From a virus: a stretch of 40,095 nt of DNA. Location: IMG/VR virus record IMGVR_UViG_3300029868_000012; one strand, given 5' to 3'. This document shows, in pieces, positions 3,902 to 29,224 of this stretch (position 1 is the stretch's first letter; each line of letters opens with the position of its first letter). A model generated the notes under the pieces. It was not told the DNA's origin. It was given only the letters and a program-made list of their open reading frames with translations, and made no database searches. A program made the position numbers and the translations under genes.

Positions 3902-4417
3902 ATGTTGACCCAAGAACAGCTCAAAGAATTTCTACACTATTGCCCTAAGTCGGGTGTTTTTACGTGGAACAAGCCATTAGGAATAAAGGTTAAGCCTGGA
4001 AGTGTCGCAGGAAGCATTGATAGCCATGGCTATATTTTGATAACCATCAATAGAAAGCACTACAAAGCCCACAGGCTGGCGTTTTTGTATATGGAAAACA
4101 AAATGCCAGAACACCAGGGTGATCATATAAATCATGTAAGAACAGACAATAGATGGAAAAACCTACGATGCGCAACTCACTCCGACAACGGGAGAAATAC
4201 AAAGCTACATTCAAACAATAAGTCCGGAATATCTGGAATTTCCTTCTCAAAAGATAGGGAGAAGTGGCAGGCATTCATAAAGGTGAGCGGTAAAAATCAT
4301 TATTTGGGGAGATTTAAAGGAAAGTTTGAGGCTTGCTGTGCCAGAAAATCAGCAGAAATTAAGTGTGGGTTTCATGAAAATCATGGAGATCCATTATCTC
4401 ATCCCGTTGTGTTCTAG
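3902..4417 (+). CDS. HNH homing endonuclease with a C-terminal AP2-like DNA-binding domain
   Basis: 171 aa. HGY..I......KAHRLAF...., DHINHVRTDNRWKNLRCATHSDN (HNH_3-type), then SGISGISFSKDREKWQAFIKVSGKNHYLGRF (AP2-like). Runs opposite to the surrounding late genes. Confidence 0.75.
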   Translation: MLTQEQLKEFLHYCPKSGVFTWNKPLGIKVKPGSVAGSIDSHGYILITINRKHYKAHRLAFLYMENKMPEHQGDHINHVRTDNRWKNLRCATHSDNGRNTKLHSNNKSGISGISFSKDREKWQAFIKVSGKNHYLGRFKGKFEACCARKSAEIKCGFHENHGDPLSHPVVF

Positions 4418-4741
4418 CGAATAATGATTTCCGTCGTTAAACCTGCCGCCCCATGAACCCCCGATATTTTCCCAAAATTCTCCTAGTTCTCGGTGGTCCT
4501 CAGTCTTTCTTAAGTAAACGCCGTTCTTGTATAAGTTAAGGTCTATAGCTAATCGTTTCTTATGGTTAGATCTGGACCTACCATAGCCTTTCTTTTCACC
4601 TGACCAACCAAATAGCCTAGGGTCTCTATACGCATCCCCAAACGTCATTTCATAGCCTAGCTCATAAGCTCTCTGGATTAACAGAGACACCATAAAGGTA
4701 AACTCTCTTTGTTTTTCGCCTAGCGTTAGCCCTTTTGCCAT
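4394..4741 (-). CDS. Endolysin, peptidase M15 (zinc D-Ala-D-Ala / L-Ala-D-Glu peptidase fold)
   Basis: Start taken at MAKGLTLGEKQREF (ATG 4741). Metal-ligand pattern SNHKKRLAID (H-x6-D) and DGNHYS. Confidence 0.7.
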   Translation of the reverse strand: MAKGLTLGEKQREFTFMVSLLIQRAYELGYEMTFGDAYRDPRLFGWSGEKKGYGRSRSNHKKRLAIDLNLYKNGVYLRKTEDHRELGEFWENIGGSWGGRFNDGNHYSLEHNGMR

Positions 4742-17630: not shown

Positions 17631-18578
17631 TTAAGAAGTGGTTAAATCGAAGATACCACCACTAGCTGCTTCGTTAGAAGACTGAAGCGTGTACTCGACA
17701 AGCATTTGCTCACGATCAGTATCACCAGTTTTAGCCAGCTCACTGGATTGGAAATCACGCAATACAGCGAACTTCCACTTGTCCATCTCTAACACTAAGC
17801 AATCACGAGATCGCATGTGTCGGCTAGGCATGATAACCAAGTCACCAAAGTCACTCACATATACATCAACAGCATTGATGATTTTCTTCGCGCTGCTTTC
17901 GATATTACGAGTAGCGCCACCTGAGAACGCAGATAGAGTCTGCTTGTTGAATGATCCAACAAAGATAGTATCTGGCTCGCCGCCTTCATCCCAACATGAA
18001 GCCAATACAGACTTCAATTGAGACTCAGTGAAAGCACGTTGATCACCATCAGTACGCGCATCAGTACCGTCACCAGTAGGATCAGCACCAGAACCACCAC
18101 CAAAGTCGGTGTTAGTTGCTAGCCATGCAGGGATACCAGCAGCTTCACGAGCTGTTGAGCTATTACCTGTTACCTGAGCATTGTTAGCGAATAGAGTAGA
18201 CTCAACATCAGTCTTAAGCTCTAAACCAGACTTCATAATCTGGAGCGCCATTTCATCAGAGCGACCCGCAGAATCAACGACGCGTTGAGTACCTGTAACA
18301 CGAGGCACCTTATCACTGATCTGTGTGCGGTTACCTAGTCGAACGGTAGGAGTAGAGGCGGTAGTAGTCGCATCATCGCCTTCAATTACTGCGTTAGTAG
18401 CTGAAGGAGTCGCTAGTACATCGGTCTGCCACTCGTGGTTAGTTGCTGTTGCCGGCACTTTTGCAATACCAGAAAGCAATGGAGTAGTGGATGGAGAAAT
18501 CATTGTTATAATGTCGGCTAGGTCTTCACGGTTACCAACTGCATCATAACTGTCAAACGTATCTGCTGGTTGAGTCAT
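17631..18578 (-). CDS. Major capsid protein (HK97-fold family)
   Basis: 315 aa. N-terminus ...GNREDLADIITMISPSTTPLLSGI......ATNHEWQTD.LA is typical of a widespread phage coat family. Follows the scaffold gene. Confidence 0.7.
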   Translation of the reverse strand: MTQPADTFDSYDAVGNREDLADIITMISPSTTPLLSGIAKVPATATNHEWQTDVLATPSATNAVIEGDDATTTASTPTVRLGNRTQISDKVPRVTGTQRVVDSAGRSDEMALQIMKSGLELKTDVESTLFANNAQVTGNSSTAREAAGIPAWLATNTDFGGGSGADPTGDGTDARTDGDQRAFTESQLKSVLASCWDEGGEPDTIFVGSFNKQTLSAFSGGATRNIESSAKKIINAVDVYVSDFGDLVIMPSRHMRSRDCLVLEMDKWKFAVLRDFQSSELAKTGDTDREQMLVEYTLQSSNEAASGGIFDLTTS

Positions 18579-21801: not shown

Positions 21802-21980
21802 TATTCGCTTCCTTCAACCTTCGCTTTAGTCTTCTTGGCTTTCTTAGGAGCTGGCTTAACTTCTACGTCTGAAAAGCCTGCTACCTTGCGAGGCTCTAAA
21901 CCTAGCTCGTTGATCTTGCCTTCCAGCGCTTCAATTCTACCGCGAAGCTCTTTGATCTCGTTACCTTGCTTAATACTCAT
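21801..21980 (-). CDS. 59-aa coiled-coil/basic protein between TerL and portal (below the track cutoff)
   Basis: Translated by hand: MSIKQGNEIKELRGRIEALEGKINELGLEPRKVAGFSDVEVKPAPKKAKKTKAKVEGSE. The ATG overlaps the TerL TGA (ATGA). Its TAA overlaps the portal ATG (TAATG). Confidence 0.5.
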   Translation of the reverse strand: MSIKQGNEIKELRGRIEALEGKINELGLEPRKVAGFSDVEVKPAPKKAKKTKAKVEGSE

Positions 21981-23533
21981 GCTACTGACACCTTCTGATA
22001 GTCGAGTTTACCCCACTTAGGCTTTTGCTTAGGTGGTCGCATTGTCATCATTATAGCATCAGCCATGTTAGGACTGCTAATCCCTAACTTTTTCATATCT
22101 GACTTAGCTAATATCTGGATTAAATCATTCGTATTATCCTTTCTAGGGATAGCACAAAGCTCTGATCTAATGCTATCCATGTCTTCAATGCCATCAGAAT
22201 CAAAGCTAATCATGTCATCAGGGTCAATGTACTTGCCACGCTTCACACATTTGTAGGTGTTATACATCCTGTCAGCTAAGAGGGTATAGTATTGCGCTCG
22301 GTTGTTCTTAAAAGTTTCAGCGTAGGTTTTAGGTTTCTCAGTACCTTCCGTATCAAGAGGAAGGTAGACCTTCTCAGCCATATCTTGGCCCTTACCGGAA
22401 AGCCCACCATGGAACCCTCCAAACTTAACACGGGTTCCATTAAATGCATCTGAGACCTGTCGCTTGAGTCCGGTACCCATTCCATCAGCATCCCAGGCGA
22501 AGTGGTCAGCCTTGTTGTTAATAGCCAATTCAGTCGCCCAATCAGTGCCAACGTCGATTTCACCCTTAGTCTTCTGTAATACTCTTTCAATGATTGATCC
22601 TCTGCGTTGTGCGTAACCGTGTGCATCGTTGCCATCGTCCATAGGATCGAATGCGACAATACGTGAACCATGCGGGGCAAATGTTTCTTTAAGGTGTTCA
22701 ATCTTGTGAGCATCAATACAAGCATCGAACCATTCAGGCTTGATTATGCTGTTGTCTACTTCGTCAAGATAATCGCCATGCCACTTATGTCGGTACTGAG
22801 CTGTAGATAACTTATCTAAATCATCTAGCCGCTCTTGCTCTAATCCGCTGGCAATGAACCATGATTGTGGCATGTCGGTGTAGTTCATCTGCACGACCAT
22901 CACGGTATCGTCTTCGTAATACCCGCAACGTTTAAGCTCACTCTCAGCCCTTGCCAACCACTTCTTAGCAACAGCTCCAGATCTTTGCCCCCTGTTCATT
23001 GTAATAATGATTTCAGGCATCTTGATATCTGAATTAGCTAGCAATGCGTCCAGCTGTTCAATAGATTCTAGTTTGTTGCCATCTAATAGCCGCTCTGTGT
23101 CATCTGCATTAAGCCGAACGGATGCTGTCAATACCCTTAGCGTGTTGTCGCTTATATCTTCGCCTTCCTCTATCCAAAGGCCGTCAACACCTGAAAGAGT
23201 AGACTTGAGGCTAGTAATGTTACGAGCAAGCCCCCTATAAAATGTGCGTCCTCCGCTTGTCTCATGAGTAATAGACGTTTTTGTATCTTCGAATCCTTGT
23301 ATGCCCAGCCTGCTAATTTCATCAAGTATTGTCCTGTGTACTGATTCTTCAATTGAATTCTGATTCTCACGAGCGCAACACCACAATTCACCACTCGATA
23401 CCTTAGCAGCTACATAGTCAGCAATGCCGGTACTCTTAGTTGAGCCACGACCGCCGACAATGATTTTAATACGCTTAGGTTTGGTAAATATGGGATATAG
23501 GTTCTTAACGTACTCTATGCTGATCTTATTCAA
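21977..23533 (-). CDS. terL: Terminase large subunit
   Basis: 518 aa. Walker A-like VGGRGSTKST near the N-terminus and a nuclease-type C-terminal half. Lies between the TerS candidate and portal. Confidence 0.8.
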   Translation of the reverse strand: MNKISIEYVKNLYPIFTKPKRIKIIVGGRGSTKSTGIADYVAAKVSSGELWCCARENQNSIEESVHRTILDEISRLGIQGFEDTKTSITHETSGGRTFYRGLARNITSLKSTLSGVDGLWIEEGEDISDNTLRVLTASVRLNADDTERLLDGNKLESIEQLDALLANSDIKMPEIIITMNRGQRSGAVAKKWLARAESELKRCGYYEDDTVMVVQMNYTDMPQSWFIASGLEQERLDDLDKLSTAQYRHKWHGDYLDEVDNSIIKPEWFDACIDAHKIEHLKETFAPHGSRIVAFDPMDDGNDAHGYAQRRGSIIERVLQKTKGEIDVGTDWATELAINNKADHFAWDADGMGTGLKRQVSDAFNGTRVKFGGFHGGLSGKGQDMAEKVYLPLDTEGTEKPKTYAETFKNNRAQYYTLLADRMYNTYKCVKRGKYIDPDDMISFDSDGIEDMDSIRSELCAIPRKDNTNDLIQILAKSDMKKLGISSPNMADAIMMTMRPPKQKPKWGKLDYQKVSVA

Positions 23534-23832
23534 GCGTTAGAGCCTACGGGGATAAATTCGAATGTGCTGGCTACTTGAATTGCTTCGCCTGCCTCACCTG
23601 TTAACTCAACTGTCCTTACATCAGGCAAGTATTTGTTCATTACTCTTAATCTTTGATCGTTGGCTACCTTGTACTTATCAAGCTCATTCCTGAACGTTTC
23701 AGAGGTATGGTCTAGCGCTTCGATTTTATCAATGTTATCAACAAGATGTTGTGCTGTACACTTCTTAGACAGCCACTCTCTTAATGCCTCCTGTCTAACT
23801 GCGCGATTCTCTTGCGCTCTTGTCTTAGCCAT
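23530..23832 (-). CDS. terS: Terminase small subunit candidate
   Basis: 100 aa, helical and basic at the N-terminus. ATGA-coupled to TerL. AAGAGGA RBS. Confidence 0.4.
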   Translation of the reverse strand: MAKTRAQENRAVRQEALREWLSKKCTAQHLVDNIDKIEALDHTSETFRNELDKYKVANDQRLRVMNKYLPDVRTVELTGEAGEAIQVASTFEFIPVGSNA

Positions 23833-23880
23833 ATACAGAGTCCTCTTAGGTTGTTCTGCATGAGTCCCGCTATGGGTTGC

Positions 23881-24291
23881 TCAATTCCACGTTGTTGTGG
23901 TGTCAGGCTGCTTTGTCCATGTATCGGATTCGTCGTCTTTGTCATCCCATGCAATAGAGTTGTCAGCCTGCTTTGTCCATATAGTAACACTATTAGCCTG
24001 GTCATCCCAAATAGTCACGGTATCGGCCTGTGTTGCCCATGCTGGCGTTTCGTCTGCTTGTTGTGCCCACGTATTAGATTCGTCAGCTTGTAGGCTCCAT
24101 GTGCTTGTATCGTTCGCCTGGTCTGACCATACGGTAGATTGATCAGCTTGAGCTATCCAGCTATCGACTTCATCATTTTGCCCCGTCCAATTAGTAACGC
24201 TGTCATCTTGAACCGTCCATAGCTCTGTGGATATGGTTCCCCACGCATTCAGCCATGAGCTACCCCAGCTTTGCGCCCAACTACTAGCCAA
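23881..24291 (-). CDS. Trp-punctuated acidic decapeptide-repeat ORF, in frame with the fibre gene behind a single TAA (no Met codon; only a TTG at its first codon)
   Basis: 136 codons, 16 Trp. Eleven consecutive 10-aa units ending in W (consensus xxQADxxxxW). Open in frame directly after the stop at 24292..24294. Confidence 0.45.
   Translation of the reverse strand: MASSWAQSWGSSWLNAWGTISTELWTVQDDSVTNWTGQNDEVDSWIAQADQSTVWSDQANDTSTWSLQADESNTWAQQADETPAWATQADTVTIWDDQANSVTIWTKQADNSIAWDDKDDESDTWTKQPDTTTTWN
23887..24216. repeat. Degenerate 30-bp tandem repeat, 11 units (coding repeat)
   Basis: Plus-strand units align, for example gtcatcccat gcaatagagt tgtcagcctg / ctttgtccat atagtaacac tattagcctg / gtcatcccaa atagtcacgg tatcggcctg ... 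Confidence 0.85.
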
Positions 24292-27200
24292 TTATGAACC
24301 CCACTCGCTACCTGTTTGGCCGTCACCTACTACAGTAGTGTCATTCACGCTCTGAATATTAGAATCTAATTCATTCGCTTTCGTGAATGTCAGGCTGTCA
24401 GTCTTAGCCTTTACTGCGTCCACGTTAGTATCAATTATATCTACTTTTGCATCGATCGTTGCAATAGTCGCATTGTCTGGAGCTATTGTGTTGGCTCCAT
24501 CAGTACCGCGCATATCTGTATTGGTTGTGGTCGTGTCTACCAGTGCTACGCCATCAACCTTACCCGCTGTAGCGTCTATGTGAGTTGTTGGCATTCTTGT
24601 ATCTATTTGGGCTGGTAACGTTGTGCCAGTATCAACCAATATTGCATCAACTATGCCGTCAATAATGTCTACTTTTCCGTCTACAGAATCAATGACGCCT
24701 AATTGCGCTGATTCTGGAGCGGTCAACCCTGATACGCCGGTTTCAACTATCAACGGCACACCTGAATAATCCATAAATATTGAATTGCCCGTAGTATCGT
24801 AAGGGCTTGAAAAGTCGCTTCTGTAGTATCGAATGTCATTATCAGTAAATTGGAAGTTGCCGGCGCTGGTCTTCTCAATTACCACATCAACTACGCTAAC
24901 ATCCTGCTTAATAGATGCCGAGCTTTCAACATCGTAAGCATCCCAAAACAACTCTATACCTTCGGAGTCACTAGCTATTAGGAACGCCCACCATGCAACC
25001 AGTGACTTCTTGGTGCCTGACCCACTGCCGACTATATCAATATCGATATTGGTCCCATCTTTTACCCAATTAGTTTCCGCTGAACCATCGATAGCCCATG
25101 TATTAACCTCTACCCAATCGACTTGGCTAATTAGAATTGTAAATCCTGTTGAGGTTGCAATTGTTATCGCCTCAATTGGGAATTTGTAAGACGCGCCATT
25201 TTCAAAGGCTACCCGATATCTAACTTGATCGCCGGCCTTGAACTCTTCGCCCTCAGTATATGCAAGGCTCCAATCACTACCTTGAACGCCATCTTCTACA
25301 GCAATGGCCATAGTTTCCCAAACCACAGTGTTATCGTTGGTCGTGTTACCTGGCGTAGTGTCCCATGTAGGCTCTGAACCTCCACTAGTGCCGCCAGTCG
25401 TGCAACGCATGTAAAGCCCTGTGGTTAGCTCTGTTCCGGTTCCTAGCGTGCGTAATCGCCTATCACCAGCTACATAGGCAGTTGATAGCACCCATATGGC
25501 TGATTCTTTAGCTGTCTTGTTGATAACCTGTAGATAACTATTTGCTTCTATGCCCAATGTTTGCGCGTTAGCCGTTACTGCTGGTGTAAAGTAGTTTCCA
25601 TTATCAGCCTGGAATCGTGTAAAGCTAGGGTGATCTAATCCACCTCTAGACGCATAGAATCCAACCAGCGTTGGTGTAGTGCCCTCTTCAAAGCCTCTTT
25701 CTGTCTCAACTGCCGTTGCGTTATGTATAACCATGTCGGACAATTCGAACCATCTTAGGCCCGTTCCGCCTGGTATTATTCCATTTGGATCATTAGCGCC
25801 ATTGAAGTTTATTTGATCAGCTATATCTACGCCTGAAGTTGTGCCGCCATCTACCCACTCATAAGCGAATACTTCACCGCCAAAGGTTCCGCCAGCTATA
25901 AGGGTAATATCACCCGATACGCCTGGATCACTGCCTGAGTATCCATGAGCCTCATTAGCTAAAACTACTTGATACGAGTTAGACGCAATCGCACTGATAC
26001 CGGCATCGACCAATAAATCTGATCTTGCTTGCTTAGATCCTGCTAGGAATGCCTTTGTGACCATGTAGTCAGAGAAATCAAATCCGTCAGCCGTTGAACC
26101 ATCGTGGTTTGGATCGTCCCAATACTGGAAAGCTTCATCAACAACGTTATTAGTCAGCGTTACTGCTGTGGAATTGCCCGAATCTGTCTGCCTAAAGTGA
26201 GTTGTTGAGCCTGTAATGAATCCGCCTGACTTCAGCACAAACCACTTTTCTAATGGGTTTAATGCATCAGCAGCGTCGAACATTTCCATTCCCGCGCCTT
26301 TCCACGTAGCCATACTGGTTATGGTCATGCCATCAGTCAAATCTACGCGGGTCAGTCCTGGTATAGACATCATCAGCAATGGCGTGTTGAAATAGCTTGA
26401 GTTAGTACGGATTACATCAGCTAGGCTTGAGCGTACATCGAGCGCGTTTTGATCACTGTTGATGGTTAATACTTTGGTAGCTCGTACATAATCATATTCG
26501 GTGGTAATCGTTAGCCCGTGACCGCTATTATAGCTTTCGTCAAAGTCCATGATGAAATTGATATTACCGTCGAAAGGCACAACGTCTTGGCTGTTAATAG
26601 GTACGTATGATTGCTTGACTAGCTCAATGTCAATAACGTCTGTATCAGGGAAATTATAGGCTAACGTTGTTCCTGTTGCGCTATCTACAACGGTTTGAGA
26701 ATCATCTTCAAAGTATCTAATTAGTGTCGTTGCTGTATCGCTGTTGATATTTAGCGTCAGTACTGGAGTTACAATTGTTAAAACACCACTCGACGCATTA
26801 TTAACCGTCAGCGTGTTAGCCGATGGAATCGAGAAGTTAGTGGTCCCCGTGTATTCGATATCAAACGTGTTGCCCGATACCGTTAAATTTGGGTCATCTG
26901 TCCATGTTCCCGACTGATTGCCGGTTATCTGTATGGCTCGGTTATTGTTAGTGAATGTACAGTTGGCTAGGTTTTCAAAAAGAGCCTCTGAAGTAACCAC
27001 TATAGCGTTAGTCTGGATGCAGCTATCTATGGTGTTTCCGCCTGACAAATCGGCTGTATTTTGCGTAATCTGATTGCATGCTGTAAACGTCATGCCAACA
27101 ATGGCTCGGCCAATAGTCCGTAATATTATCTCACCACTGATTATTAACGCGCCTACCTCGCTATAGGTGGCAGAGGTGCTGGTGCCGCTCTCTAGCTCCC

Positions 27201-28731
27201 ATACATTAAGATTCCCCATGTTAAAAACAGTAGTCGAGAAATCGATATCATCTGCTGAACTGGCCAGAATCGAGAACCCAAGAAGCCCCGCGCTAATCTG
27301 TACTTGTACGCGCCTGGTTGCTGGGTTGGATATCGCTGGCCACTCTAATGAATGCTGCTGGCTATTCCATATTACGGGCCTTACGCCATCCCCTACCCTG
27401 ATTTTCTGAGCACAAAAGAACTGGGTTTGTGACTGTTGGCCCTGGTTCGATATGGTTCTAAGGGATGATGTTTCCGCACACTCTACGCCTATAGACATGT
27501 CAACCGGCGTAGTTGTACTTCCACCTAAGACCGTCATAGTTTTCAATCTATACAAAAATCCCCAGTTCTGGCCTCTGTAGCTCTCTTTTCCAGGGTTGCC
27601 TAGAGCGTAATTATCAATATTCTGAAGGACGGTTGCGTTAACTGTACCGAACTCTTCAGACTCAAACCCACCATCAACCTCAATCAAATGAACCACTGGG
27701 GCAACAGAGCCTGTAGGCTTGGTATCTTTGGCGTCAATCCTCCAAGCTCTAAAATTTGTACCATCGCCTATCAGAAAACTTTTAGCATCTACGGAGAACG
27801 TCCCATATATAACCGGAGATCCACTACCTGAAAAGGAAATAATGTCACTTTCTATGTCATAGGAGACATTCGTGCTGCTCCCTCTTACAAACATGTCCGA
27901 TTTATTGCTGGCAGAGGTGAAAAACCCGCTACTAACTATCCCATCCTCGAACTGACCCTGCGACGGAAGGCTTGAAAATTCTGTAGTTATCCCTTGTAAC
28001 GTAGGGATTACATTGGTCCCAGTAGATGAAAAGTTTATAACCCCCGTTCCTGTTTGCGCACCCGTTACACCATTTTCACCAAGAACATGAAGCAAATCAG
28101 CAGGAGGACTATCTACATCGATAAACCCCCTGCGTATATCGCTTCCCGCGTCCCTTAATGCAATAGTTATTATTGTTGGGTTTATGGTTGCATCATCTAC
28201 AACCTGCCACTCTCTAGCGGGAACTACATCCAAAGCCGCCCCACCATAAGTATAGTAAGCTAGTAGCTCGGTGTTCCTGGCTGTTTTTATAATCCCCGGA
28301 GCGGGAACCATTGTACGGGTGTTACCAGTAGCTAGGTATACGATAAGTGTATTGGCGGTTACTGGAGTTATAGCCGTTGAGGAAGGTGTGGCAACCACAG
28401 AACTAGTTCTCGAAGTCAGCGTTACATCAAACGCGGTAGTTGTATGAACTTCCCCATAGCTAGTAATCTGAGCGAACTGTACAGAAACGTTACCCACTAA
28501 TGTAACGCTAGTAGGCTCTGAAGATGTGGCTCGCCTAAACCAGTATCTACTGGATACCGCGTTGGCCGCTACTGCGTTATAGGTTAATAATGTCCAGCCC
28601 GTAGGTGTGGCCGGCAATGTAACATAACGCCCCGAAAATGAGAGGAACATAAAATCATCTTCATCGGCGTTATATTGTAGGGTTATGGTATTTGAACCAG
28701 CTGTAGCAAAAGAGTCTTTTGGAAACGCCAT
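24292..28731 (-). CDS. Giant tail fibre / receptor-binding protein (1479 aa) with beta-helix-like middle and fibre-repeat C-terminus
   Basis: The middle has NNRAIQITGN...TVSGNTFDIEY...-type turns. The C-terminus has repeated ID.KVDIID..VDA. and ILVDTGTTLPAQID / KAKTDSLTF motifs common in phage fibres. Confidence 0.6.
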   Translation of the reverse strand: MAFPKDSFATAGSNTITLQYNADEDDFMFLSFSGRYVTLPATPTGWTLLTYNAVAANAVSSRYWFRRATSSEPTSVTLVGNVSVQFAQITSYGEVHTTTAFDVTLTSRTSSVVATPSSTAITPVTANTLIVYLATGNTRTMVPAPGIIKTARNTELLAYYTYGGAALDVVPAREWQVVDDATINPTIITIALRDAGSDIRRGFIDVDSPPADLLHVLGENGVTGAQTGTGVINFSSTGTNVIPTLQGITTEFSSLPSQGQFEDGIVSSGFFTSASNKSDMFVRGSSTNVSYDIESDIISFSGSGSPVIYGTFSVDAKSFLIGDGTNFRAWRIDAKDTKPTGSVAPVVHLIEVDGGFESEEFGTVNATVLQNIDNYALGNPGKESYRGQNWGFLYRLKTMTVLGGSTTTPVDMSIGVECAETSSLRTISNQGQQSQTQFFCAQKIRVGDGVRPVIWNSQQHSLEWPAISNPATRRVQVQISAGLLGFSILASSADDIDFSTTVFNMGNLNVWELESGTSTSATYSEVGALIISGEIILRTIGRAIVGMTFTACNQITQNTADLSGGNTIDSCIQTNAIVVTSEALFENLANCTFTNNNRAIQITGNQSGTWTDDPNLTVSGNTFDIEYTGTTNFSIPSANTLTVNNASSGVLTIVTPVLTLNINSDTATTLIRYFEDDSQTVVDSATGTTLAYNFPDTDVIDIELVKQSYVPINSQDVVPFDGNINFIMDFDESYNSGHGLTITTEYDYVRATKVLTINSDQNALDVRSSLADVIRTNSSYFNTPLLMMSIPGLTRVDLTDGMTITSMATWKGAGMEMFDAADALNPLEKWFVLKSGGFITGSTTHFRQTDSGNSTAVTLTNNVVDEAFQYWDDPNHDGSTADGFDFSDYMVTKAFLAGSKQARSDLLVDAGISAIASNSYQVVLANEAHGYSGSDPGVSGDITLIAGGTFGGEVFAYEWVDGGTTSGVDIADQINFNGANDPNGIIPGGTGLRWFELSDMVIHNATAVETERGFEEGTTPTLVGFYASRGGLDHPSFTRFQADNGNYFTPAVTANAQTLGIEANSYLQVINKTAKESAIWVLSTAYVAGDRRLRTLGTGTELTTGLYMRCTTGGTSGGSEPTWDTTPGNTTNDNTVVWETMAIAVEDGVQGSDWSLAYTEGEEFKAGDQVRYRVAFENGASYKFPIEAITIATSTGFTILISQVDWVEVNTWAIDGSAETNWVKDGTNIDIDIVGSGSGTKKSLVAWWAFLIASDSEGIELFWDAYDVESSASIKQDVSVVDVVIEKTSAGNFQFTDNDIRYYRSDFSSPYDTTGNSIFMDYSGVPLIVETGVSGLTAPESAQLGVIDSVDGKVDIIDGIVDAILVDTGTTLPAQIDTRMPTTHIDATAGKVDGVALVDTTTTNTDMRGTDGANTIAPDNATIATIDAKVDIIDTNVDAVKAKTDSLTFTKANELDSNIQSVNDTTVVGDGQTGSEWGS

Positions 28732-28732
28732 A

Positions 28733-29224
28733 TTAAGCCACCAACCTATTATACATTTCTGTGTCAGCCTGATATCTCATCATAACCTCATCTTTTCTGT
28801 AGCTTGTGTCTATATCCTCTCTAGGTGCTGCATTCTCTTTTGTTATCTTCACATCAGAAAGCCGCCCTAATACGTCAGACATTGATTTCAAACACATGAT
28901 TTTGTTAACAAACGAACCATCAATAAACCTGGATTGCGGGGTTAAATGTTCGTCATCAGAAACAAGCGCCAAATCAACAAACTGATCATATGATGATAAG
29001 CGCACACCGTCTAATAGATAACCTGTGGTAGCCATGAAGAAAAACGCACTTAGCCACCTATCAAAAGGTTCTCTTATAAAGGCTATTCTTAGGGGGAATT
29101 GGTGAGTTTTGCCCTCATCTATCGTGCCGGATTTGTACATTTCTAGCGTATGGGTGCCGTTCTTTGGTATGCCCAACATTGAAACCGGCCCTATAAACGT
29201 TTTTATGATGTAAGCCTGCCGCAT
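28733..29224 (-). CDS. Sulfotransferase-like protein (short, 163 aa)
   Basis: IPKNGTHT (residues 19-26; PKxGxT PAPS 5'-phosphosulfate-loop type) and REPFDRWLSAF (residues 51-61; RxPxxRxxS 3'-phosphate motif type). The stop is 1 nt from the fibre ATG. Confidence 0.5.
   Translation of the reverse strand: MRQAYIIKTFIGPVSMLGIPKNGTHTLEMYKSGTIDEGKTHQFPLRIAFIREPFDRWLSAFFFMATTGYLLDGVRLSSYDQFVDLALVSDDEHLTPQSRFIDGSFVNKIMCLKSMSDVLGRLSDVKITKENAAPREDIDTSYRKDEVMMRYQADTEMYNRLVA

Follow-up and report, generated by a model that had tools for sequence, protein, structure and literature searches.

Accessory genes lying right behind a fibre gene are familiar from the gp38 adhesin of T2/T6-type phages, which sits on gp37, and from the Tfa proteins of Mu, P2 and lambda; tail-fibre assembly genes generally adjoin the fibre gene on its 3′ side and are tightly coupled to it. 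A reading frame behind a structural gene can also be expressed as an extension of that gene, as in the A1 protein of Qbeta, a C-terminally extended structural protein made by programmed UGA read-through. Here we analysed a junction in a viral DNA of 40,095 nucleotides (IMG/VR record IMGVR_UViG_3300029868_000012; this whole stretch is referred to as the window), at which the TAA of a 1479-aa open reading frame is followed by 136 further sense codons opened by the TTG at 24291. The original prediction had the coordinates and the frame of this arrangement right, and it offered read-through, a recent nonsense mutation or termination-reinitiation at the TTG as explanations. The features of the junction are as follows.

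24292..28731, minus strand: fibre-like gene, 1479 aa, from the ATG at 28731 to the TAA at 24294..24292
24295..24498, minus strand: conserved module at the fibre C-terminus (...IDAKVDIIDTNVDAVKAKTDSLTFTKANELDSNIQSVNDTTVVGDGQTGSEWGS)
24299..24302, minus strand: GGGG 7 nt 5′ of the TTG, arising from Trp-Gly codons in the fibre tail
24292..24294, minus strand: fibre stop codon TAA, the ancestral C-terminus by comparison with relatives
23881..24291, minus strand: SWG-box/Trp-decapeptide-repeat gene, 136 codons, ending in the TGA at 23883..23881
24289..24291, minus strand: TTG initiation codon, aligned with ATG in most relatives
24238..24291, minus strand: conserved N-terminal module shared by family members, the SWG box (M)ASSWAQSWGSSWLNAWG, built of four x-S-W-G units
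23887..24219, minus strand: eleven 10-residue Trp repeats with the consensus W-[TS]-x-Q-[AS]-[DN]-x-x-[TS]-[ST]
24016..24018, minus strand: sole in-frame GTG, codon 92 (in ADT-V-TIW)

Like gp38 and the Tfa genes, the 136-codon gene is small, lies just after a long fibre-like gene, and is modular and seemingly exchangeable, with one conserved part tied to the fibre C-terminus and another part that is highly variable. It differs from them in having no sequence similarity in Pfam, PHROGs, NCBIfam or PDB, and what is conserved in it amounts to just 18 residues of W-G repeat at the very N-terminus, which would be the part that binds the fibre. As set out below, we consider it very probable that 23881..24291 is a separate, TTG-initiated and translationally coupled gene, and not an extension of the fibre.

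The assignment of the 1479-aa protein as a fibre is unproven, and we use the name as the most plausible identity. The whole protein gave no match in Pfam, NCBIfam or the PDB sequences, and only weak matches in PHROG (head decoration, 7.5e-6; tail needle, 0.006). Likewise, tblastn searches of the cultured phages in INPHARED, run with the whole 1479-aa protein, with its tail alone and with the 136-aa protein, returned no match. The protein ends ...GQTGSEWGS-TAA, and its C-terminal module is common to many proteins of otherwise different sequence: the end of the window fibre (...TDSLTFTKANELDSNIQSVNDTTVVGDGQTGSEWGS) fits a module of the form ...TDxLTFT...N-x-Q-S-V-N...G-x-G...[EP]WGP. An AF2 model of the last 260 residues, built from 44 sequences, reached a pLDDT of 57, with residues 201-227 forming the sole confident helix.

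Several observations indicate that the 136-codon frame is coding: it is open well beyond chance (the probability of a random open stretch of this length at the local composition is ~1e-4), it shows far fewer non-synonymous than synonymous differences from its L011 orthologue (pN 0.32, pS 0.86), and it has 42 further non-redundant homologues. In addition, the W/Q/D periodicity of the Trp repeats is retained although the repeats have diverged at the DNA level, where Tandem Repeats Finder found no tandem repeat. The original prediction stated that the stretch contains neither ATG nor GTG, which is true of ATG but not of GTG, given codon 92. That GTG has no SD-like sequence upstream and does not lie at the start position of the family; hence, while the TTG at 24291 is not strictly the sole conceivable initiator, it is the only one that yields the full-length product. 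The position of the frame is uninformative by itself, because a frame that follows a stop with 0-nt spacing is automatically in phase with the gene upstream, and 0-nt spacing occurs at two more junctions in the window (19771/19770, between the portal gene and a 93-aa gene, and 13283/13282).

The homologues define a family of small tryptophan-rich proteins that is undescribed and new, for which we collected 43 non-redundant members, the window protein among them. They share an N-terminal SWG box of 18 residues with the consensus M-A-S-S-W-G-x-S-W-G-x-S-W-G-x-S-W-G, and the window protein fits the pattern M-A-[ST]-[ST]-W-G-x-S-W-G-x-[SA]-W-x-x-[SA]-W-[GD], with all four W positions aligned. Searches by other routes recovered little: with the 136-aa protein alone, both the word-indexed homologue search and the IMG/VR peptide patterns were empty; a profile search of the word-indexed database with a four-sequence SWG alignment gave two matches only; and the 136-aa protein and several other family members had nothing significant in Pfam, PHROGs, NCBIfam or the PDB sequences. 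An AF2 model of the 136-aa protein from a 3-sequence alignment was unusable (pLDDT 42.6). The C-terminal parts behind the SWG box differ widely in length (46-913 aa), and FN3-like domains and long repeat domains occur among them. Family members can escape gene callers, as illustrated by the 60-aa member in L014, which is uncalled in its source record.

Almost all of these genes (41/43) lie directly behind the conserved fibre tail, which provides 41 non-redundant junctions for comparison. A start codon is present at the position equivalent to the window TTG in every one of them (ATG in 33, GTG in six and TTG in two, L095 being the second of these), and an alignment of six junctions places the window TTG on ATG (ATG is found at this position in L010, L013, L016, L014, L011 and L066). 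The fibre stop codon is TAA at 38 junctions, TGA at two and TAG at one. The spacing from the fibre stop to the next start is 0 nt at 27 junctions and a TAATG overlap (-1) at 11, with +1, +2 and +3 nt occurring once each; 28 of the 41 are in frame with the fibre, counting the single +3-nt case, and 13 are out of frame (the 11 TAATG overlaps together with the +1 and +2 cases). Among the latter is the closest W-repeat orthologue, L066 (48% identity), whose ATG lies in a TAATG overlap and whose SWG-box gene is followed by a TerS-like gene, matching the order in the window. The arrangement is also not universal: L017 has a fibre homologue with no SWG-box gene behind it, and in L012 the SWG gene sits behind TerL while a 1565-aa fibre homologue ends ...EWGP-stop without such a gene following. 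The original prediction had named relatives with the downstream segment out of frame or absent as evidence against its extension readings, and these are such relatives.

Leaky or programmed read-through of the TAA, producing a minor fibre isoform with a Trp-repeat extension, perhaps beside independent initiation, fits the prevalence of in-frame, 0-nt spacing across the junctions, and some other proteins truly carry Trp-decapeptide repeats as their C-terminal tails (L002, L007, the 767-aa protein of L012, P0125, P0130 and P0132). The window also resembles Qbeta A1 in that a structural gene ends in one stop and an in-frame ORF follows it. It departs from Qbeta, however, in that the stop is TAA and not UGA, the downstream ORF is equipped with a conserved start, and the same ORF is out of frame in nearly a third of the relatives, while some have it elsewhere or not at all. 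Of the stop codons TAA leaks least, and a T after it makes for strong termination. Among the stops of the window TAA predominates (24/37), with TAA-T the commonest context (14/37). No tRNA gene, suppressor or otherwise, was found in the window, and the RNA around the junction has an unremarkable fold (z = -0.36), which offers no stimulatory structure; a suppressor tRNA or an altered genetic code was rejected on the absence of tRNA genes and the prevalence of TAA. A role for the periodic TGGGG as a G-quadruplex or other RNA element was likewise discarded, for Trp-Gly codons explain the pattern, third positions vary and the folding is unremarkable. Given in addition that no fused homologue occurs among the 120 best fibre-tail matches, we regard read-through as very improbable, though conceivable at a low level in the 0-nt, in-frame lineages, and the junction does not hold up as a recoding candidate; the finding as first posed is ordinary.

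The other way of joining the two frames, a recent nonsense mutation that split one ancestral fibre polypeptide in this isolate, rests on the continuity of motif style across the stop (SEWGS followed by SSWAQSWGSSW). While this likeness is real, it is superficial, and it does not reflect a single ancestral polypeptide: it brings together two distinct conserved modules, the ...EWGP tail of the fibre and the SWG box, with the stop at the ancestral end of the first. Homologous fibres were compared for whether the stop is conserved or replaced by a sense codon, as the original prediction had proposed, and conservation was complete. Of the 120 best fibre-tail homologues, 47 have the terminal module, and every one of these ends 5-12 residues past the G-x-G, as the window fibre does, so that the fibre stop represents the ancestral C-terminus. 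Since the stop also has the same position in all 41 junctions, with a start codon right after it in each, and no fused form appears among the 120 homologues listed, a nonsense mutation is hardly credible. Taken together, these comparisons establish a separate gene with a conserved stop and start position, constraint at the protein level and a close genetic link with the fibre tail.

Termination-reinitiation at the TTG, the third of the original proposals, finds support in the comparison, with ATG at this position in most relatives, GTG in six and TTG in L095. Translational coupling reportedly peaks in efficiency at spacings of -4 to +3 nt (PMC12548453), and the window spacing of 0 nt and those of the relatives (0, -1, +1, +2 and +3) all fall inside this range. 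Compared with coupled gene pairs of the NTGA, TAATG and 0 to +3 nt types, the window has 0 nt and its relatives switch between 0 nt and TAATG; non-ATG starts are shared with such pairs, as is location in a single operon: neither a terminator nor a promoter was found between the fibre-like gene and the 136-codon gene. Judged from sequence, there would be nothing unusual in these two genes as a coupled pair. The GGGG 7 nt before the TTG is a possible, weak Shine-Dalgarno element.

The GGGG is forced by the Trp-Gly codons in any case, and relatives carry the same TGGGG upstream of their starts because the ...WGP tail is conserved.

The choice of TTG has a parallel further along the same strand, at the start of the large terminase gene.

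23530..23832, minus strand: next gene, 100 aa, putative small terminase by position only
23531..23533, minus strand: TTG with which TerL starts, sharing bases with the TGA before it (TTGA)

The 100-aa gene, which gave no match in Pfam, lies 48 nt downstream of the 136-codon gene and has its own AAGAGGA SD. TerL has no alternative start within its first 49 codons, its matches in Pfam and PHROG begin at residues 2-20, and its orthologue in L001 has an ATG at essentially the same position, with an N-terminus one residue longer. TerL sets an example within this phage of a TTG start at a coupled junction, and the TTG at the fibre junction is a valid initiation codon, in use elsewhere in the same genome.

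A change from ATG to TTG that has left the gene silenced or decaying, or a base-calling error at 24291 that hides a true ATG, would fit the rarity of TTG in the family, and a pattern with open stop and start positions matched no second, identical junction in IMG/VR or the metagenome collection against which the base could be checked. Yet the frame is intact over all 136 codons and keeps the repeat pattern of the family, the essential TerL of this phage begins with TTG in the same manner, L095 carries TTG independently at the same junction, and the six GTG members indicate that non-ATG starts are tolerated. Silencing or error is accordingly improbable. The product of the TTG-started gene could nonetheless be made at a low level, because TTG initiates weakly and few family members use it (2/41).

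Under the preferred explanation of a separate coupled gene, ribosomes ending at the TAA would most likely reinitiate at the adjoining TTG, or a fresh ribosome would be recruited there, possibly aided by the GGGG. The TTG, a one-base variant of the ATG seen in most relatives, would be decoded as fMet to give a product starting MASSW... ((f)M-ASSWAQSWGSSW...). Fibre and small protein would then be made together and form a complex, in which the SWG box may dock the small protein on the conserved module at the fibre C-terminus, leaving the swappable C-terminal domain as the exposed distal part, possibly one that binds a ligand or glycan. Such docking is suggested by the constancy of the SWG box on variable C-terminal parts and by the location of the genes behind the fibre tail. 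From this gene linkage and modular conservation, we place the chance that the 136-aa protein has a docking or tip function a little short of even.

The same gene, expressed in the same way, might instead encode a fibre assembly chaperone for folding or trimerisation of the C-terminal module, with no place at the virion tip. Its position directly behind the fibre gene and its tight coupling would suit a tail-fibre assembly gene, as would the pairing of a conserved SWG box with a conserved fibre tail. In contrast, C-terminal parts as variable in length and domain content as those of the SWG-box proteins are unexpected for a chaperone, and the SWG-box proteins resemble no known family of Tfa proteins or chaperones. 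We therefore view a chaperone role as unlikely, though well ahead of the explanations that deny the gene its start or its independence.

For annotation, the region is to be described as two genes, the second with a TTG start. The gene family that emerged as a by-product is of more use to phage biology than the recoding question: a conserved fibre tail and an 18-residue tag on highly variable proteins look like an exchangeable fibre-tip system of uncultured phages, and the tail and the SWG box provide a concrete module pair for binding and host-range engineering. A broader model, which we put forward tentatively, would make the SWG box a universal docking tag for diverse cargo on the ...TDSLTFT...EWGP 'socket' of fibres. 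If so, the conserved stop-start junction would hold together genetically a plug-and-play host-range system, the cargoes would span Trp-decapeptide repeats, Gly-rich repeats and FN3-containing proteins of >900 aa, the 'socket' fibres would form a widespread family in marine and environmental phages, and the Trp-decapeptide repeat would represent a new ligand-binding repeat fold.

The Trp repeat itself is rare, as an exhaustive search of 1.84 billion representative proteins gave about six true relatives. It resembles the short aromatic-centred repeats of fibre-like proteins in its 10-residue period, aromatic residue and Q-x-D core, and differs from them in that the Trp version is in no curated family. 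Tyr variants (TYLKQTDASS) occur in the long proteins P0121, P0122 and P0126, one of which has a collagen-like stretch.

On the minus strand, the 1479-aa fibre ends ...GQTGSEWGS at a TAA (24294..24292), and the adjoining TTG (24291..24289) opens 136 sense codons that run to a TGA at 23883..23881. While these coordinates and the absence of an ATG agree with the original prediction, its statement that GTG is also missing was incorrect, as one in-frame GTG lies at 24018 (codon 92). The product comprises (M)ASSW-AQSW-GSSW-LNAW-G, a short linker and eleven 10-residue units, each headed by tryptophan (consensus W-[TS]-x-Q-[AS]-[DN]-x-x-[TS]-[ST]; 43 units, four proteins). The region contains no DNA tandem repeat, so the Trp periodicity is kept at the protein level. 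An open frame this long would arise at random with a probability of ~1e-4, and comparison with the orthologue on contig L011 gave a pN of 0.32 and a pS of 0.86; the frame is coding. Plus-strand antisense ORFs over this gene (23812..24093, 93 aa; 23897..24142, 81 aa) are probably by-products of its repeat composition.

The gene resides in a phage genome of ~40 kb with most genes on the minus strand. By capsid protein comparison, the closest cultured relatives are alphaproteobacterial podoviruses (Octadecabacter Antarctic DB virus 2, 51%; a Bradyrhizobium phage; Pelagibacter phage HTVC106P). The late operon begins with the 1479-aa ORF (28731..24292); the 136-codon ORF comes next, then a 100-aa gene, TerL and the portal gene.

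Window genes with family matches
17631..18578, major capsid protein, match to PF17236
19771..21801, portal, match to PF23899 SU10_portal
21977..23533, minus strand, TerL, Pfam and PHROG terminase matches

We infer that the 1479-aa protein is a fibre; it has no match in Pfam, NCBIfam, PDB or INPHARED, and its PHROG matches, to head decoration and tail needle, are weak. A fibre-internal motif, VDTTTTN[TS]DMRGT[DN]GANT, occurs in several copies in three proteins (P0004, P0006, P0008) of the Planctomycetaceae bacterium SH139 chromosome, which could be prophage-derived or reflect cellular use of the same repeat. A 163-aa ORF (28733..29224, minus strand) ends 1 nt ahead of the fibre ATG and has sub-threshold matches only, to the HNH_4 and sulfotransferase families.

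Homologues were sought with a query joining the C-terminal 260 aa of the fibre to the 136 aa. Among the best 120 matches, 47 carry the terminal module ...TDxLTFT...N-x-Q-S-[VI]-N...G-x-G, and all 47 end 5-12 residues past G-x-G, typically with ...G[DT]EWGP(V/A); the window fibre ends after 8 (QTGSEWGS). Trp repeats follow in none of the 120. Because every module carrier ends there and no match runs on, the fibre TAA is, judging from these homologues, the ancestral C-terminus. The common stop site and the lack of a fused form among these matches refute a recent nonsense mutation splitting the fibre in this isolate, and argue against the earlier suggestion of one ancestral polypeptide spanning the stop.

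Contigs were traced for the two closest fibre homologues (68% and 59% identity). The L010 junction reads ...DPWGP TAA ATG, opening MASSWGLSWYNSWGNSWG...., and that of L011 reads ...PWNPA TAG ATG, opening MSSWGDSWGLSWGGSWG... and leading into ten Trp decapeptides (125 aa). This stop-then-start pattern recurs behind the more distant fibres of L013, L016 and L014. Behind the L012 fibre (1565 aa, terminating ...EWGP-stop) come a 29-aa ORF and TerS; this contig's gene for a protein with the N-terminal S-W-G module (SWG box; P0133, 64 aa) is found after TerL, joined by a TAATG overlap. In L014, the fibre stop is directly followed by an SWG-box gene of 60 aa (4298..4480; MTQVATWGTSWGTSWLNTWY with short Trp repeats) that is absent from the gene calls of the source record; small family members can therefore be missed by gene callers.

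IMG/VR and a metagenome collection were then scanned for SWG-box genes using a degenerate DNA pattern beginning with the start codon (D-TG, allowing ATG, GTG and TTG equally) and silent on upstream context. After removal of chance matches and duplicates, and including the window and six contigs traced earlier, 43 non-redundant genes were obtained, 41 of them directly behind a fibre-type tail. Stop-start spacing at these 41 junctions is 0 nt (27), -1 (TAATG; 11) or +1, +2 and +3 (one each); the fibre stops are TAA (38), TGA (2) and TAG (1), and the start codons ATG (33), GTG (6) and TTG (2). The second TTG gene, in L095 (989..1432, 147 aa), also has a 0-nt junction, ...DTWGPV TAA TTG, opening LASTWGLSWGTSWGGSWG.... 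While 28 of the downstream genes are in frame with the fibre, 13 are out of frame, including that of L066, and nothing follows the fibre stop in L017; relatives of this kind, with the downstream segment out of frame or absent, were named in the original prediction as evidence that would refute it. At 48% identity, the L066 protein is the closest orthologue of the window protein, with which it shares the SWG box, linker and eleven repeats, and a TerS-like gene comes after it. Since the ATG of this L066 orthologue lies in a TAATG overlap, it is unreachable by read-through.

Recoding signals were not found: the window has no tRNA gene, TAA is its main stop codon (24/37) and TAA-T the commonest stop context (14/37), and RNA folding at the junction is no stronger than in shuffled sequences (z = -0.36). 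Neither read-through nor a broken fibre is supported. Besides the fibre junction, the window has two junctions of 0 nt, five of -4 and six of -1.

Other 0-nt junctions in the window
19770/19771, minus strand, portal TAA and ATG of a 93-aa gene
13282/13283, minus strand, 247-aa and 107-aa genes

In both pairs, too, the second gene follows a single stop without a change of frame; as tight junctions are common in this genome, this property is a by-product of 0-nt spacing. TerL too opens with a TTG (23533), which overlaps the TGA ending the 100-aa gene as TTGA (23530..23533, minus strand). The terminase matches of TerL begin at residues 2-20, whereas an alternative start lies no nearer than 49 codons in; in the L001 orthologue, whose N-terminus is one residue longer, an ATG occupies essentially this position.

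Coupling is most efficient at spacings of -4 to +3 nt (PMC12548453). No promoter or terminator was found between the fibre and the 136-codon ORF. The junction sequences support translational coupling, whereby a ribosome would finish the fibre at TAA and then initiate at the adjoining TTG. Such reinitiation, also among the original proposals, is favoured by a DNA alignment of six junctions, in which the window TTG falls exactly on ATG, and by the presence of a start codon at all 41 junctions. The conserved fibre-tail Trp-Gly codons place a GGGG 7 nt upstream that may serve as a weak SD. Apart from the rare start codon, this is ordinary gene packing.

SWG-box proteins share a conserved 18-residue box, almost always encoded next to an equally conserved fibre tail. 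Outside the box they vary from 46 to 913 aa, and their contents include Trp decapeptides, Gly-rich repeats, FN3-like parts and charged helical segments that end in DEE-x-LLLL. From this linked conservation and variable remainder, we infer that the SWG box would dock the 136-aa protein onto the fibre C-terminal module, with the variable part as an exposed, exchangeable tip. The main functional rival is an assembly chaperone; library and structure searches gave no hint of function for the 136-aa protein, and AF2 no usable model. The 136-codon ORF is a member of a fibre-linked and so far undescribed protein family, itself possibly worth further study.

The Trp repeat is a mobile module untied to the SWG box, because it also ends otherwise unrelated proteins, 108-767 aa long, as a C-terminal tail (in L002, L007 and L012, the L012 protein being 767 aa long; P0125, P0130, P0132).

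Trp-decapeptide C-terminal tails
L002, 205..708
L007, 2853..3698
L012, 4188..6491
L046, 297..1259

Seven SWG-box proteins (L016, L018, L029, L030, L035, L038, L043) have a charged helical middle and an acidic-then-hydrophobic tail (for example ...DEEALILLLAA, ...RDEELLLLLN), apparently a second and distinct C-terminal interaction motif. The SWG tag also heads very large proteins, of 913 aa (L027, 7689..10427) and >519 aa (L044, 3..1559), both rich in 'LTLTG-x-AP' repeats and containing an FN3-like segment. In an exhaustive search, the long proteins P0121, P0122 and P0126 carried the 10-residue repeat in a Tyr form (TYLKQTDASS), and one also had a collagen-like G-x-y stretch; the Tyr and Trp versions may share a common repeat architecture.
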